From Clostridia bacterium (GTDB lineage: Bacteria; Bacillota; Clostridia; Christensenellales; UBA1242): DNA of 64,000 nt. The stretch is taken from positions 4,648 to 68,647 of the forward strand of contig JAFSVX010000010.1 of assembly GCA_017444785.1 (NCBI GenBank), given 5' to 3'. This document shows positions 21,037-59,790 of the stretch, piece by piece. Position 1 is the first letter of the stretch, and each line of letters begins with the position of its first letter. The notes below the pieces were generated by a model, which did not search any database, was not told the DNA's origin, and saw only the letters and a program-made list of their open reading frames with translations. The translations under genes and the position numbers were made by a program.

Positions 21037-24000
21037 TTAACTATTCTTCACATATTTCTTATATCCAGCTTTGTCACTTTCTGATTGCAAAGTGAAACCA
21101 GTAATGCCATCAGGACAAATTGCATCTTCATTAACATAAATAACACTTGCCTTGCCTGTAAGGTGTCCAGAAGAATCTGGGACAGAAGCTATCTCATGAC
21201 CGATGAAAGTTACCGTAAGGTTAGAGCACTGATTAAATATATTAGCAAAATTGACTGAAATTCTATTTTTATTTTCTGGTAATATCACAGTAATTTCTTC
21301 TATATTAGGATCATTATAGAACATTCCACTGCCTAATTGAAGTACATTAGAACCATTAATGACTTCACCATTGATAACAACTTTGGTCAATAAACTATTC
21401 ATATGTGCATTCCATGAAACAAGGCTATCATAATTTTCTGATGCACCTGAAATTATAAATGTTGTCATGTTATACACATAAGTAAATGATTCTTGATTTA
21501 TTATTGCAATACTACCCGAAATTTCCACACTTACCAGCTTATCACATTGAAAGAAGGCACGAGTAGGAATTTCTACTCCATCTTTATTAATATTTAAGTT
21601 GATTACTGAACTTGATGTTGGTAAATACTCTTGTGACAAAATTGGTCCAGTAATATCTTTTAAAGCACTGAAGCTATTAAGTAAAGTATTTTGAATTACA
21701 CAATCGCCAGGTATTACGATTCCTTTTAATAAGGTAACATCTGATACTGATATACTTGTTATCTCTGTACATCCTTCAAAACTAAATGGATTTATAATAT
21801 CTGTACAATCATTATCAAAAGCATATACTGTTGCACTTGGATCCACAATACCATATGCAATTTTATAAGAACTATCACTACTTTTAAAATATTTTATGTT
21901 GTTTGATTCAATTTCACTCCAACTGTGGAATACATGTGAAAAATCATCACTTATGACAACCGCATATTTTGCAATATAGCCATTTTCAGAACTGCCCTTT
22001 TCCATTGTTATTGCTGACAAATTCACGATTTCAAGAATCATTTGTCCTTTAAATGCCTCAGATCCAATACTTGTCACTCCATTTGGTATTGCTATTGTCT
22101 TAAGACCAGTCCAATTTGGATCTTGCTGTTTTGCATAGTCTGTCAATTTAAACGCACCTGCACCAATGCTTGTCACACTGGATGGGATTGTGATACTTGT
22201 AAGCCTTGTGCAATTATAGAATGCAGAACTTCCAATACTTGTCACACTATCCGGGATTGTCACACTGGTAAGCCCACTGCAATCGTAGAATGCATGCTGA
22301 TTAATCTCTTTACATCTTGAATCCAATGTTATGTTTGCTATACCGCTATCTGCCAAACCAACAGCTATGTAATCCGTTTCACTCTCTTTGTAATATATCA
22401 CATTATTTATTGTTGTTAATCTGCTTGGAATATCTGCGCTTGTATTTATCACTTTTGCGCGATATCCTGCATATCCATTATCCGAACTTCCTGCCGTGAT
22501 TGTTAAACTTGATAAATTATATACTTCCACCAATCTGTAACAAGCATCAAATGCCCTCTCTCCAATGCTTGTCACACTGGCTGGAATTGTGATACTTGTA
22601 AGTCCTGTGCACTCATAGAATGCATCACTTCCAATGCGTGTAAGAGTGCTTGGCAATGTTACTGATCCTGTTATTCCTTGTGGCACTTGTATAATTGATG
22701 TCTTCGCTTTGTTATATAATATTCCATCTTGTGATGCATATACTGTGTTATTCTCATCAACTGTAAATTGGGTAAGTCCACTGCACTCATCAAATACTCT
22801 ATCACCAATTGTCTGCACTCCTGCACCAATCGTCACTGTTTCAAGAGACGAACATCTCATGATTGCCCTTGCTCCAATGCTTGTTATGTTGTCAGACAAT
22901 GTCACACTTGTAAGACCACTGTTGAAATAAAATGCCCAGTCTGGAATCTCTGTAATTCCATTTGGAAATGCAAGATTTGTTACCGCTGTGTTATTTATGT
23001 AAAGAGTCCAATCTGCCAAAATCCAATAATTACCAAAACTAATGTTTGTTAAGTAATCATTTAATGAGCCAGAATAATAAAGCGAAATTGCAGGGCCTGT
23101 ACCATCATCTTTTGTCCTGAATGCATTGTTTCCAATACTCTCAATTCCAGCCCCAAAATTAATTCTTGTTAATGTGCAATTATGGAATGCATCTTTACCT
23201 ATTGTTTCAACACTGTTTGGAATTGTTATGCTTGTCAATCCTGTGCAACTGTTGAATGCAGATTCACCAATGGTCACAAGGCTTGTTGGCAAAGAGATGT
23301 TGCTTAAACTTGTGCAACCATAAAATGCAACATAGCCAATGCTTGTTATACTGTTCGACCAAGTTACAGATTCAAGTTCAGAACATTGATAGAATAAATA
23401 AGATCCAATATTTGTTACTCCACTGCCAATTCTTACAGTTTCCAAATCAAAACATCTGTAAAATACAGTATTGCCAAGTGATGTCACACTGTCTGGAATA
23501 ACCACGTCAGTAAGTGATTCACAACGAGCAAATGCTGCCCCATCAATTGTCACAAGCCTATTTGGCAATATCAAATTTTCAAGGCCTGTACATCCTTCAA
23601 ATGCACTTGAATGAATTGTTGTCAAAGTGTCTGGCAATGTCAAAGTTGTAAGATTTGAACAGTTATAAAACGCCTTTTCACCGATTTCTGTCACACCTGA
23701 GCCCAATGTTACACTATAAAGACCAGTGCCGAAAAACGCACGCGATCCAATTGTAACATTGCCTGACGTGGTTACTTGTGCCAAACCACTAAAACCTTCA
23801 AATGCAGAACTACTGATATTTATATCACCGATAAGTTCAAGATTAACATCATAAATTTGAACACCACCAGTAACAAATGAACTTCTGTTTAAAGTCCCAT
23901 TACCAATTACAGAAACATTATTTACAAAGCAGGTGAGAGTGTTTGTATAAGACCAGGAACCATTATACGTAACAAGTGACATAATGAGTTTGTTAGGGTT

Positions 24001-25075
24001 ATATACCATTAATGCCGCTGTATTATAAATTTCAGTTACACTATCTGGCAAAACCAAGTCATTTTCAATCTTTGTATCATAAAATCCAACAGTTCTTAAA
24101 CTACTTGGTAAAGTAAGAGAATCACAATATAACGAATCACACTCCACTTGGTGACATGTATATAGTTCCCCATCCACAAATTGTCTTGGAACAACGATGT
24201 TCGTCTTAGCATTCGTTAAATAAACTAATTCACCTCCACATATAGTGTTATCTATAAGCTCTGGAGTTGCAGTTTTTGTGTAAAGATTATAAATTGCAAA
24301 ATTTTGATTTGATGCAACTGCACTTTGTGCAACTGGGGCAAGAGCCTCGCCATCTTCAATGCCTGTTAAAAGTATTTCCTCTTTAAAGTATCCACAACAT
24401 TCAGTATAAGGGAGAGGGGCATCTGAAAGATTAAATGTTGTGCTGTTTCCAAGACTTACCGATCTTGCAAGTACTCCATCTACATAAAAGTCTATGTAAT
24501 TTCCATAAAGCTGGGTATAGTTGTTCACAATGTTACATCCATCAACAACAAGTGTTCCACCATCTTCAACATAAACTGCTGTGGCTTCCTCACTGGCATT
24601 TCCTGTGATTGATCCACCAAGAAGATGGCAGGTTCCACCTGCCTCAACATAAATGGCACCTCCCCATTTTGCTTGGTTATAGGCAATAACTCCACCTGTC
24701 ATTGTGAATGTCCCACCATTGGCAACATAAATTGCTCCACCATACTCGGCAGAGTGTGACCTTATTGCACCTTGTGACATTGTAAAGCTACTGCCACTGC
24801 CAACATAGATTGATCCGGCCTTTGCTGTCAGTGGCGCCTGCGATGCACCACTATCTTCATTCTCTGAAGCATAATAAACACCAGGGATATCATATCTCTC
24901 TGGTGTTGTTTCTTCAACTTCCACTGGTGTGGAAGGTTTATTATTTCCTCTATTTACAAAGATTAACCCTATCGTAAGGGCAACGGCAAAGACCGCAAGT
25001 ATGATACTTGTTAAAAGTCTATACCCCCCCCCCCATGACGGTTTTGTTCTTATTTGACTTATTTGTCATTGCCAT
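21037..25075 (-). CDS. BspA-like leucine-rich-repeat surface protein with GGAIY beta-helix head; N-terminal signal-anchor exon out of frame at a poly-G tract
   Basis: ORF 21037-24924 (1295 aa): GGAIYV repeats, then many about 23-aa LRR_5-type repeats (IPxSVTSIGxxAFxxCxxLTS). RBS GGAGAGG plus ATG 25073-25075 encode MAMTNKSNKNKTVM. The main frame encodes YRLLTSIILAVFAVALTIGLIFV right after the tract. The two frames differ by 1 nt. Confidence 0.75.
25024..25034 (-). repeat. Homopolymeric G11 tract (C11 on plus strand) inside the 5' coding region
   Basis: Counted directly: C at 25024-25034. G10 would be in frame. Confidence 0.95.
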
Positions 25076-25167
25076 AATTTTATCCTCTCCTTCGTGTATT
25101 ATTTGGCTTTATTTTGCCTGTTTTTATCCGTTTTTATACACTTTTATTTTTTTATTGAACAATTATC

Positions 25168-25196
25168 ATTTTATACATTTATAAAAATCTTGTCAA
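25168..25196 (-). promoter_or_regulatory. Promoter of the 1295-aa LRR protein gene
   Basis: Reverse strand TTTGACAAG with TTGACA (25191-25196), 17 nt, TAAAAT (25168-25173). Confidence 0.6.
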
Positions 25197-25215
25197 ATGA
25201 TTTTTATCATTTTTT

Positions 25216-56903: not shown

Positions 56904-59223
56904 TTATGAATTCTTTATATATTTATTATACCCTGCTCTGTCACTTGTCGTTTGAGTGAATGAATCTGTGATATATGTTCCAACGCTTGTGATTGTGTCT
57001 TTCACATAAACTGTTGTGGCATTTGCGAGCAAATAGGAATCTGATGAATTTAGACCTGCTATCGTTGATGAATCTATTATTACTTCTGTAAGGCTACTGC
57101 AACCCAAAATTGCGCTATCTCCTATGTTGATCAAACCACTTCCTATTGTTATTTTTGTAAGACTACTACAACCGTTAAATATCCAACCAGCAATACTTGT
57201 TACACTATCCGGAATTGTAATTTCAATAAGTGAACTGCAACCTTCAAATGCAACAGTTCCAATACTTGTTAAAGTATTTGATAATATGACTTCTGTAAGA
57301 CCACTGCAACCGTTGAAAGCAGAAACTCCAATGCTAAGTACACCACTTGGAATATTTATGCTTGTAAGTCCAGTACAATTTTGAAATGCATTATTACGAA
57401 TAAACCTGGTATTTCCATTTATTCCACACGATGTTATAGAATTATTTTTTGCATAAATAAGCAATATATATGCATTTATATTGTTTCCAAGATATTTTGC
57501 ATTATCATATTCATTACAAATCAATGATGTGCAACCATTAAATACATAATCTCCAATACTTATAAGGCTGTTTGGAATCGTAACATTTGTAAGTGAACTG
57601 CAATCCCTAAATACTGAATCTCCTATACTTGTCACACCTTCTGGTATAATAACACTCGTCAGGTCTGAACAACTCCAAAATGCACACTCTCCAATGCTTG
57701 TCACACTGCTTCCAATTGTCACACTGCTTACTTTTGGGCTGTATGATGAGTTTGTGACATAAAACAAATTTGCCGGTATGCTTTCAACATTATTACCAAA
57801 TACAACTCCAATTCCATCCCCGTTTGCGCCTGCCCTATAGAATAAATTTTGTGGTACTGAGGCTATGTTAATTGCATTATAATATATGGTTTCTAGACCA
57901 TAACAACCACGGAATGCACCTGTGTCAATGCTTGTCACACTGTCTGGGATTGTTATACTTGTCAGTCCACTACAACTGCTGAATCCCCAAGATTTAATCC
58001 TTGTCACACCATCTGGAATTCTCAATGCCCCAGTAAGCCCGCTACAAGAAGAAAATACGCCATTTTCAATTCTTGTCAAACCACTTCCAAATTTCAGACC
58101 TGTAAATCCTGTGCAACCACCAAATGCAGAATCTTCAATAACTATCACACTGTTTGGAATTGTCAATGTCCCTGTAAATCCTGTGCAATGTAGAAATGCA
58201 CTCCATCCAATTTTTTTAATACAACCGGGAATTATCAATGTCCCAGTAATCTCACTGCAGTTTTGAAAGGCACCACCTTCAATGCTTGTCACATCTTGAT
58301 TTTCATGTTGCCTTGGAATAACAACTTCACCAGTTGGTGTTCCTTGTTTACTTACAAAATGCACATTATTACTTATATAAAAATATAATTTATCAAGTGT
58401 TGCAGTTTTTGTATAAAGTCTTACTGTTTCAAAATTATTTACTGTGGCACTTTGAACTGCCGTTGGAGTATAAATTGTGTCACCGTCTTCCAGATACTGT
58501 GTGCATTCTGCATCTTTGAAATATCCAGGACAATTGTTATAATCAAGTGGTAAAACATCTGTGTCGTAAACAAACTTACCATCTGTTAAATCCAATGCTG
58601 AAACCGCAGCAACTTTTCCATCAACATAATATACAACATAACTGTCATAAAGTTGTGAACTGTTGCTGTTTATTGTTGTCGTTGTTGTTTGTCCTTCAAT
58701 AACTGTTCCACCTGCATTATATATCGCAGCACCAGTTTCCGCTGCATTTCCGACAATCGCCCCGCCATTAAGATTAACTGTTCCACCTTCTTCAACATAG
58801 ATTGCACCACCACAAATTGCTTGGTTAAACATTATTGTTCCGCCATTCATGGTAAAAGTACCACCACTTGCAACATATACTGCCCCACCATATGTCGCTG
58901 ATGAACCTTTATATGTTCCACCATTCATCACATATGAACTTCCTGCACCAACATAAATTGCTCCGCCCTTTTCAGACATTGGGGCAAGTGCTGTACCATT
59001 TTCTTCAACTTCCTGCGCTGATGCATAATAAACACCAGGGATAGTTCTATCCTTGGTGTCCTGCTGGTTCTCAACCACTGTTGGTGATGTGGTTGCCTTG
59101 TTGTTATTAACAATTTTTACGGAAAAAGTAAAGATAAGCGCAGCAACAACTATCGCTATACTTATTAGTATCTTATTAAGCTGCCCCCCCCCCGATTTTT
59201 GCTGTTTTTACCTTGTTTTTCAT
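56904..59223 (-). CDS. BspA-like LRR surface protein (paralog 2); N-terminal signal-anchor exon out of frame at a poly-G tract
   Basis: ORF 56904-59078 (724 aa) has the same head (GGAIYV repeats) and tail (AGYNKYIKNS) as the 1295-aa paralog. RBS GGAGAAGG plus ATG 59221-59223 encode MKNKVKTAKI, then G10. The main frame continues QLNKILISIAIVVAALIFTFSV. Confidence 0.75.
59184..59193 (-). repeat. Homopolymeric G10 tract (C10 on plus strand) in the 5' coding region
   Basis: Counted directly: C at 59184-59193. G9 would be in frame. Confidence 0.95.
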
Positions 59224-59319: not shown

Positions 59320-59348
59320 ATTCTATATTTTTATTCTGCCCTTGTCAA
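59320..59348 (-). promoter_or_regulatory. Promoter of the 724-aa LRR protein gene
   Basis: Reverse strand TTTGACAAG with TTGACA (59343-59348), 17 nt, TAGAAT (59320-59325); same -35 context as the paralog promoter. Confidence 0.6.
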
Positions 59349-59442
59349 ACAATTTTTATCAATTTTGACAAAATTTTTATGAAATTTTTCGCCTCTCTAC
59401 CGAACCGGCGAAGAAAACTCGCCGCATCTTTGGCAAAATTTA

Positions 59443-59516
59443 TGTATATAACAAGGCATAAAAAAATTCCAACGCTCGATTTTATTTTCATAAATGAGTG
59501 TATCGCGATTTTGTAG
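59443..59516. repeat. Conserved-core module, copy D (arms no longer complementary)
   Basis: Close to 28999-29074 by eye (roughly 85-90 percent). However the 5' arm ATTCCAACGC is of copy-C type and the 3' arm GTGTATCGCGAT is of copy-B type. Confidence 0.75.
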
Positions 59517-59570
59517 TATATACATATAACGTGAATTAAGGTGAAAATTTTGATGCAGAAGAAGGCACTA

Positions 59571-59620
59571 AAAAATCCCAGGCAAGCGCATATTTACATA
59601 CGTAACTGTCTGGGATTTTT
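59571..59620. repeat. Hairpin module, copy E (variant core)
   Basis: ATCCCAGGCA/TGTCTGGGAT arms (one G.U on plus) around AGCGCATATTTACATACGTAAC; preceded by ATGCAGAAGAAGGCA, also seen at about 28768. Confidence 0.7.
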
Positions 59621-59648: not shown

Positions 59649-59790
59649 TTCATACAAATAACGTTGTTTAAGGTTTAGAAAATGTGCAATAAGAAAGAAA
59701 CAAAAAAGTTCCACGCCCGATTTTACTTTCGTAAATGAGTGTGTGGAACTTTTGCAGTTTCTGCACTTAGTGTGCGTTTTGTAAGCCTTA
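59649..59790. repeat. Complete nested palindrome unit abutting the rplA stop codon (copy F)
   Basis: Box TTCATACAAATAACGTTGTTTAAGG; outer arms 59670-59701 / 59757-59789; inner AGTTCCACGC / GTGTGGAACT around CCGATTTTACTTTCGTAAATGA. Confidence 0.8.

Follow-up and report, generated by a model that had tools for sequence, protein, structure and literature searches.

We have examined a 64,000-nucleotide stretch of DNA from a Clostridia bacterium (GenBank assembly GCA_017444785.1, contig JAFSVX010000010.1, positions 4,648 to 68,647; hereafter the window, of ~37% GC), and observed that its two BspA-like genes, designated A (21037-25075) and B (56904-59223) and both located on the minus strand, each contain a long run of G residues early in the coding sequence, which puts the start codon out of frame with the remainder of the gene. 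We propose, at a probability of about 0.7, that these tracts gain and lose residues through slipped-strand mispairing, and that at least two, and probably three, paralogs of this family of surface proteins are switched ON and OFF by such events, independently of each other. An earlier reading of the same DNA, made from the sequence only, had assigned the same coordinates to the two genes and placed the variability of the family in the leucine-rich repeat (LRR) core of the proteins. The sequence points instead to the poly-G tract, a frame switch, as the variable element.

The G tracts and the frames they connect

The 5' ends of genes A and B are laid out alike: a near-consensus promoter is followed by a Shine-Dalgarno sequence, an ATG, 10–13 lysine-rich codons, the G run and a hydrophobic helix. 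The elements concerned are as follows.

25189..25209, minus strand: gene A promoter module TGATAAAAATCATTTGACAAG, with the -35 sequence TTGACA at 25196-25191, the -10 sequence TAAAAT at 25173-25168 and a 17-nt spacer
25035..25075, minus strand: gene A true start, ATG at 25075, with ribosome-binding site (RBS) GAAGGAGAGG at ~25093-25084 and basic n-region MAMTNKSNKNKTVM
25024..25034, minus strand: G11 homopolymer of gene A, proposed to act as a slippage switch; at this length it leads to TAG at 25021-25019 and an 18-aa peptide (OFF)
24925..25023, minus strand: gene A putative signal-anchor helix (YRLLTSIILAVFAVALTIGLIFV) and short linker, readable in the ON frame only
59341..59361, minus strand: gene B promoter module TGATAAAAATTGTTTGACAAG, with the -35 sequence at 59348-59343 and the -10 sequence TAGAAT at 59325-59320
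59194..59223, minus strand: gene B true start, ATG at 59223, with n-region MKNKVKTAKI
59184..59193, minus strand: gene B G10 homopolymer; G10 leads to TAA at 59178-59176 and a 15-aa peptide (OFF)
59079..59183, minus strand: gene B putative signal-anchor helix (ILISIAIVVAALIFTFSVKIV) and linker, readable in the ON frame only

As assembled, the ATG frame reads MAMTNKSNKNKTVMGGGV-stop in gene A and MKNKVKTAKIGGGAA-stop in gene B. When the tract lengths were edited in silico, gene A came into frame at G10 or G13 (proteins of 1345 and 1346 aa, respectively) and gene B at G9 or G12 (772 and 773 aa). That is, loss of 1 G or gain of 2 restores the frame and joins the n-region to the transmembrane (TM) helix and the body open reading frame (ORF), and the remaining lengths between -2 and +1 G bring a stop within 15–21 codons in both genes. 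The length class of the tract decides between full-length product and early truncation, as at a contingency locus. No exported protein would be made from the assembled majority genotype (G11, G10), since translation ends after 18 or 15 codons. Past the tracts, the frames stay open for 1295 codons in A and 724 codons in B, which argues against pseudogene decay. The order of n-region, poly-G and TM segment had been recognized in the sequence-only reading and is present in both genes; what that reading overlooked is that neither tract, as assembled, is in frame.

The two tracts are also the sole G/C runs of 6 or more residues in the 64 kb, where 0.3 runs of 8 or more are expected, and we have rejected a chance origin for them on these grounds. 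A scan of the window with TRF disclosed no further simple sequence repeat (SSR) worth noting. By this second criterion, that of a long homopolymer in 5' coding sequence that is over-represented against its background, the tracts again resemble contingency loci. Nor is the homopolymer a by-product of glycine coding, since GGG is the rarest Gly codon (9%) and is used for none of the 22 codons in the seven other Gly-Gly-Gly runs of the window ORFs. The tract occupies the same position in both genes, between the basic n-region and the TM helix and 2–5 residues before the h-region; the DNA that flanks it cannot be aligned between A and B, and the two whole proteins are only 32% identical (BLASTP, E = 3e-79). 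A and B are old paralogs.

We envisage that each gene would be transcribed from a strong promoter of the sigma-70 type, which has an upstream module in common with the other gene, and that the G10-11 tract, read as Gly-Gly-Gly, would lie between a short basic n-region and a signal-anchor helix, followed in the protein by a beta-helix stalk, a beta-grasp-like domain, an LRR_5 solenoid whose length differs from gene to gene and a conserved C-terminal module of 65 aa. The G tract would be hypermutable, with slipped-strand mispairing during replication adding or removing a G, and one of every three length classes (G10/G13 in A, G9/G12 in B) would connect the start codon to the gene. A one-base contraction would then turn either gene ON, independently of the other. 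Tract length would be expected to vary within the population, reversibly and under selection for the switch, and a clonal population would comprise a mixture of surface phenotypes, which may be of advantage when it meets host antibody or phage or when attachment targets change.

The promoter scan placed TTGACA-17-TAAAAT at 25196..25168 for gene A and TTGACA-17-TAGAAT at 59348..59320 for gene B, each agreeing with the consensus at 11 of 12 positions. The common -35 context, noted in the sequence-only reading together with its 17-nt spacing, proved to be longer than described: the 21-nt module TGATAAAAAT-NN-TTTGACARG has 2 matches in the window (25189-25209 and 59341-59361; 0.02 expected), both of them at these genes, and it recurs 5' of a related gene in a contig from another metagenome (L042, described below). 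The gene B module is tandemly duplicated (59342-59383), with a degenerate, 76% identical second copy at 59363-59383; gene A has a single copy. Also, the spacer between rplA and gene B is unusually long (560 nt) and contains an 86-nt direct repeat (59448-59533 and 59689-59774, 72% identity), a terminator-like hairpin at 59704-59753 within one copy of that repeat, and a separate 14-nt hairpin at 59571-59620. Rfam returned no credible match in this spacer and, over the whole window (1-64000), no family at gathering score, although rplK and rplA are present.

The mechanical ORF list starts both genes at internal GTG codons, which gives body ORFs of 1295 aa for A (24924..21037) and 724 aa for B (59078..56904). 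These are identical to MBQ7466559.1 and MBQ7466601.1, respectively, which are records of 'MAG: Clostridia bacterium' (MAG, metagenome-assembled genome). The NCBI starts are likewise GTG 24924 for A, at the upstream, highest-coordinate end of the head described below, and GTG 59078 for B, and they leave off the n-region and signal anchor. Because an internal GTG start drops the anchor, both proteins, and probably a third, MBQ7466987.1, would be called cytoplasmic, and similar switches are likely to have been overlooked in MAG catalogues.

Proteins encoded in the ON frame

Both proteins have the same order of parts: an N-terminal anchor, a short GGAIYV beta-helix, a small beta-grasp-like domain, a BspA-type LRR_5 solenoid and a 65-aa C-terminal module. 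The segments downstream of the anchor are located as follows.

24175..24924, minus strand: gene A head, comprising the GGAIYV/GGTFTM beta-helix (body residues ~36-160) and then the beta-grasp-like domain (YVDG...CGYF...LYTKTAT)
21235..24174, minus strand: gene A LRR_5 array of the BspA type, matched by Pfam in 8 stretches and containing non-LRR insertions
21037..21234, minus strand: gene A 65-aa tail module ending AGYKKYVKNS, and stop codon
58293..59078, minus strand: gene B head, beta-helix and beta-grasp-like domain
57102..58292, minus strand: gene B LRR_5 solenoid, 5 Pfam stretches and ~18 rungs in the AlphaFold2 (AF2) model
56904..57101, minus strand: gene B tail module ending AGYNKYIKNS, and stop codon

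Each ON-frame protein contains one strongly hydrophobic segment, at residues ~20–40, with a Kyte-Doolittle 19-residue mean of 2.5–2.7. We found no lipobox in ON-frame A or B, and neither protein has the combination of LPXTG with a C-terminal hydrophobic or TM anchor that is typical of internalin-like proteins. The earlier remark that an LPXTG anchor is lacking was therefore correct, the only strongly hydrophobic segment being the N-terminal one, and this helix has the appearance of an uncleaved signal anchor. A, B and probably the third paralog are most likely membrane-tethered BspA-type LRR surface proteins that act as adhesins or ligand binders.

Across roughly the first 300 aa, the heads of A and B share 43% identity, with IPGVYYAS, YGGA.YVA.GGTFTM and GGAIYVE invariant, in keeping with the shared GGAIYV-type head that the sequence-only reading had described. 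An AF2 model of the head (mean predicted local distance difference test score, pLDDT, of 75.8, and >85 across most of residues 30-130 and 150-190) consists of a short right-handed beta-helix with ~26-residue rungs; a small beta-rich domain, modelled with less confidence, comes after it. Matches of the head to known families were few. Beta_helix (PF13229) scored 26.6 against a cut-off of 25.9 in A only, and POMP_repeat (TIGR01376) scored 15.7 in A against a cut-off of 15, both of which are marginal; Pfam Chlam_PMP, at 16.8 in A and 11.9 in B, fell under its cut-off of 20.6; and the gene B head gave a weak match to the tapirin adhesin helix in a profile scan. Foldseek found nothing in the PDB with E < 1e-3, the best local matches being the InlB B-repeat, for the second domain (probability 0.96), and Rhombotarget A (probability 0.99, 88 columns), and a head profile search of PDB sequences found nothing. 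There was no convincing Pfam or NCBIfam match of the head to an enzyme family, and enzyme-named NCBIfam rows were far under their cut-offs. An enzymatic head, which would have spoken against a stalk or adhesin, is thus not what the prediction describes, and the modelled beta-helix is non-enzymatic in appearance. The Pfam and NCBIfam scans also showed no C-terminal autotransporter beta-barrel; the C-terminus is made up of the LRR and tail module.

The core is unambiguously of the BspA-type LRR_5 class (PF13306), with 431.3 bits in A and 323.4 bits in B against a cut-off of 27.7. As the sequence-only reading had it, repeats of ~23 residues form a core that differs in length between the proteins, which are 1345 and 772 aa long in all: we counted 14 strict xF..C..L units in A and 10 in B, mostly at a spacing of 23 residues. 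The AF2 model of B (mean pLDDT 72.6) is matched by Foldseek to the LRR solenoids 4fs7 (E = 1e-14), 4gt6, PcpA 4cp6 and TpLRR 6mlx, and LRR surface proteins of gut bacteria are among its matches.

The likeness of the C-terminal ends, first noticed as a near-identical terminal peptide, in fact extends over ~65 aa at 45% identity. A profile of this tail matched 156 protein clusters, 27 of them at E <= 1e-10, and in most of the 156 the match lies at the extreme C-terminus; carriers include Treponemataceae MAG proteins. Some large proteins have internal repeats of the module: the profile matches P0134 in 5 stretches and P0135 in 7, and each copy in P0134 is followed by a conserved '...LVFQPINT...NTTEG..HVAY..G.GS' segment. 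These observations suggest a domain boundary or capping unit and not merely a C-terminal peptide. A known sorting signal was considered for the tail and rejected, as the module has no hydrophobic segment. The head, for its part, is found in over 100 other proteins ahead of DUF6273, Flg_new or Chlam_PMP regions. Most of these are from gut metagenomes, and the head-bearing proteins whose sequences we read have ordinary N-termini. Since both head and tail are found widely with unrelated cores, the constant ends of A and B reflect the domain modularity of a broad superfamily; the suggestion that they are a private feature of antigenic variation did not survive this comparison.

Other assemblies, relatives and alternative explanations

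For comparison we used short contigs from two ENA assemblies that match the window at >=99.9%. Contig L043 spans tract A and reads G11, and L044, which stops right after tract A, also reads G11. Contig L002 ends nine bases into the tract B region and reads G8-T-G, a total length the same as in the window, and L001 ends 5 nt short of the B start codon, ~35 nt before the tract. Three of these 4 contigs break in, or within ~40 nt of, a tract; such breaks fit either heterogeneity or poor read quality, and prove neither. Over 3.2 kb, L043 differs from the window at only three positions, 23529, 22750 and 22722, all in the LRR region of gene A and all non-synonymous by codon reading (A>T, N>K and I>L), and it shows no difference in aroK or the spacer and no indel across 787 codons of gene A. 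Two of the three differences lie close to where the contig ends and may be assembly noise caused by repeats.

Further members of the family, which the sequence-only reading had proposed to look for, were found: MBQ7466987.1 (P0001), and P0141, P0128, P0121 and P0002 from other samples. The nearest is MBQ7466987.1, which is 72% identical to the head of A and is very probably encoded in the same MAG, since the three accession numbers lie close together. It is annotated from the equivalent internal GTG (MEVEQ...), which implies that there is no in-frame start upstream and therefore that its 5' end is probably frameshifted too; we regard it as probably a third switched paralog. A B-like relative in L042 (533-1108) has a near-identical promoter, and the tract at the same site has decayed to GGGGGGAGGG, which is in frame. 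A stop codon closes its ORF after 191 codons, at 37 nt from the end of the contig, and the gene may be a pseudogene or a truncated variant. The full-length P0141 (contig L045), which has both head and tail, lacks a G tract, as do more distant homologs. The tract is therefore lineage-specific, and its retention in this genome's paralogs is what would be expected of a mutable site under selection. Among genome contigs there were no close relatives, only 5 distant matches, and a scan of JGI metagenomes yielded nothing but head homologs at <=47% identity, all of which lack a 5' G tract. One G11 was observed elsewhere, at L005:5084-5094, ~70 nt 5' of the ATG of a signal-peptide gene of Candidatus Limnocylindrus (Chloroflexota, 64% GC) whose product includes a distant head homolog; this run may be a homopolymer switch in a promoter or 5' untranslated region, or a coincidence. 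Record names (XIEF21-1, WILK20-1 and RGIG goat MAGs) suggest a ruminant gut habitat.

Several points weigh against slipped-strand switching. We saw no tract-length polymorphism: G11 is read in the window, L043 and L044, and L002 is the sole other contig with tract B. The ENA contigs may share study or samples with the MAG, and so are not fully independent of it; the comparison was of assembled sequence and, for the third paralog, of its protein record. Moreover, PMC9187656 stresses that the consensus length of a G10-11 tract is prone to error, so that the OFF/OFF call could be one base wrong. Both tracts exceed an in-frame length by exactly one G, as a systematic over-call would also produce, and the end of L002 carries an evident error-like T within tract B. 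Reference lengths of G tracts are known to be unreliable (PMC9187656), and if the true lengths were G10 in A and G9 in B, both genes would be intact and constitutive, the G run serving as a neutral or structural Gly3 hinge. We consider such a miscall unlikely. G11 recurs in three assemblies, and even with one G fewer, two runs of at least 9 G at one site in old paralogs of low GC would need explaining; the absence of any other G/C run >=6 from the window and the avoidance of GGG in Gly runs point to selection for the homopolymer as such, and tracts of these lengths slip.

Long homopolymers promote RNA-polymerase slippage, and it could be supposed that the OFF genotype is expressed by that route, or by ribosomal frameshifting, at a fixed low level of full-length protein and with no heritable switching. 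Both genes need the same correction, of -1 G, and transcriptional slippage is mentioned in PMC9187656. We judge this very unlikely: no frameshift-stimulating context around the tract is conserved between A and B, the G/C tracts of such length that have been studied act at the DNA level (PMC9187656, 10.1101/2020.09.16.300947), and slippage in transcription or translation could coexist with slippage of the DNA instead of replacing it. That A and B are plain pseudogenes, inactivated by frameshift and decaying, is hardly credible, although both are out of frame and the related L042 gene stops early; the tract is the sole lesion in each gene, the long frames downstream are free of stops, the strong promoters and RBS are kept, and the domains score well. 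The model put forward in the sequence-only reading was of antigenic variation, in which conserved head and tail provide substrates for recombination, and paralogs swap their LRR cores or lengthen or shorten them. It has in its favor the head, tail and promoter common to A and B, the roughly two-fold difference in length of the LRR cores and the presence of at least one more paralog in the MAG. However, the heads are only 69% identical at the DNA level over 270 nt, and no exact match anywhere between the two genes is longer than 22 nt, so that there is no useful substrate for homologous exchange. Neither long near-identical flanks nor donor cassettes, as gene conversion would require, were found; we saw no mosaic blocks of high identity between A and B, and internal LRR repeats reach at most 87.5% identity over 80 nt. 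The second assembly of gene A shows 3 substitutions and 0 indels over 787 codons, and the generic head and tail, which occur in hundreds of proteins with unrelated cores, are conserved for domain function and not as cassettes. Exchange between paralogs is for these reasons quite unlikely. In summary, the N-terminally anchored BspA-like family with shared promoter, head and tail stands as the sequence-only reading described it, and the private constant ends and paralog recombination do not.

Relation to known phase-variable systems

A close parallel to the proposed switch is in Bifidobacterium breve UCC2003, in which the sortase-dependent pilus genes bbr_0113 and bbr_1889 contain an intragenic G11/G10 switch that operates by replication slippage; these tracts were annotated as split ORFs, G9 fuses the frames, and four combinatorial phenotypes result (PMC9187656). 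In both cases the host is a Gram-positive gut commensal, G10-G11 lies in the 5' part of genes for surface structures, the reference annotation splits or truncates an ORF whose frames are fused by a one-base change, and two independent loci would give four phenotypes. In contrast to the LPXTG pilins of that high-GC actinobacterium, the proteins considered here are N-terminally anchored, of the BspA-type LRR class and from low-GC, uncultured Clostridia, the tract is within the region coding for the putative signal anchor, and variation in length is inferred only. The Gardnerella nanH3 gene has a C8-14 tract near its signal-peptide region, which is ON at 9 or 12 and yields ~40-aa peptides at other lengths (bioRxiv 10.1101/2020.09.16.300947). 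It resembles A and B in that a homopolymer lies close to where the signal peptide of a cell-surface protein is encoded, and differs from them in that it encodes a sialidase, its tract follows the signal peptide, and its variation has been shown experimentally.

The same protein class is found in the BspA-like multigene family of Candidatus Mycoplasma girerdii, for which metagenomic data showed SSR frameshift switching with the majority often OFF (PMC5476646). Both systems combine BspA-like LRR proteins with a frame switch of the SSR type; yet the girerdii repeats are dinucleotides, in at least 28 copies of the genes in a wall-less Mollicute, whereas A and B have G homopolymers, 2–3 copies and a beta-helix head. 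The repeat sequence and predicted solenoid fold of A and B are those of BspA, TpLRR and PcpA (PF13306; PDB 4fs7, 4gt6, 4cp6 and 6mlx), but proteins of that type use lipoprotein, choline-binding, type IX secretion or other anchors, and none of the solved LRR_5 structures has a GGAIYV beta-helix head or the 65-aa tail module. The GGAIYV motifs, every ~26 residues and modelled as a right-handed beta-helix, recall the GGA[ILV] repeats of chlamydial Pmp/POMP proteins. There is, however, no autotransporter barrel, the host is monoderm and the scores are marginal, and the resemblance is one of repeat type only.

The conceptual advance is modest, because the mechanism is well established elsewhere. 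A limited literature search turned up no account of a switch of this kind in Clostridia of the gut or rumen. We hold tentatively, at a little under even odds, a wider view in which a ruminant-gut lineage of Clostridia keeps a small 'phasome' of several BspA-like adhesin paralogs, each gated by a G tract at the junction of n- and h-regions that predates the divergence of the paralogs, with one conserved promoter module and a combinatorial, mostly OFF display. This would be the first contingency-locus system to be described in commensal Clostridia, and one whose genes are systematically truncated in MAG annotations. If the tracts do slip, an uncultured species of gut Clostridia would vary its adhesin repertoire stochastically, as pathogens and Bifidobacterium do, and this would bear on evasion of host immunoglobulin A or phage, and on heterogeneity at the strain level among rumen and gut communities.

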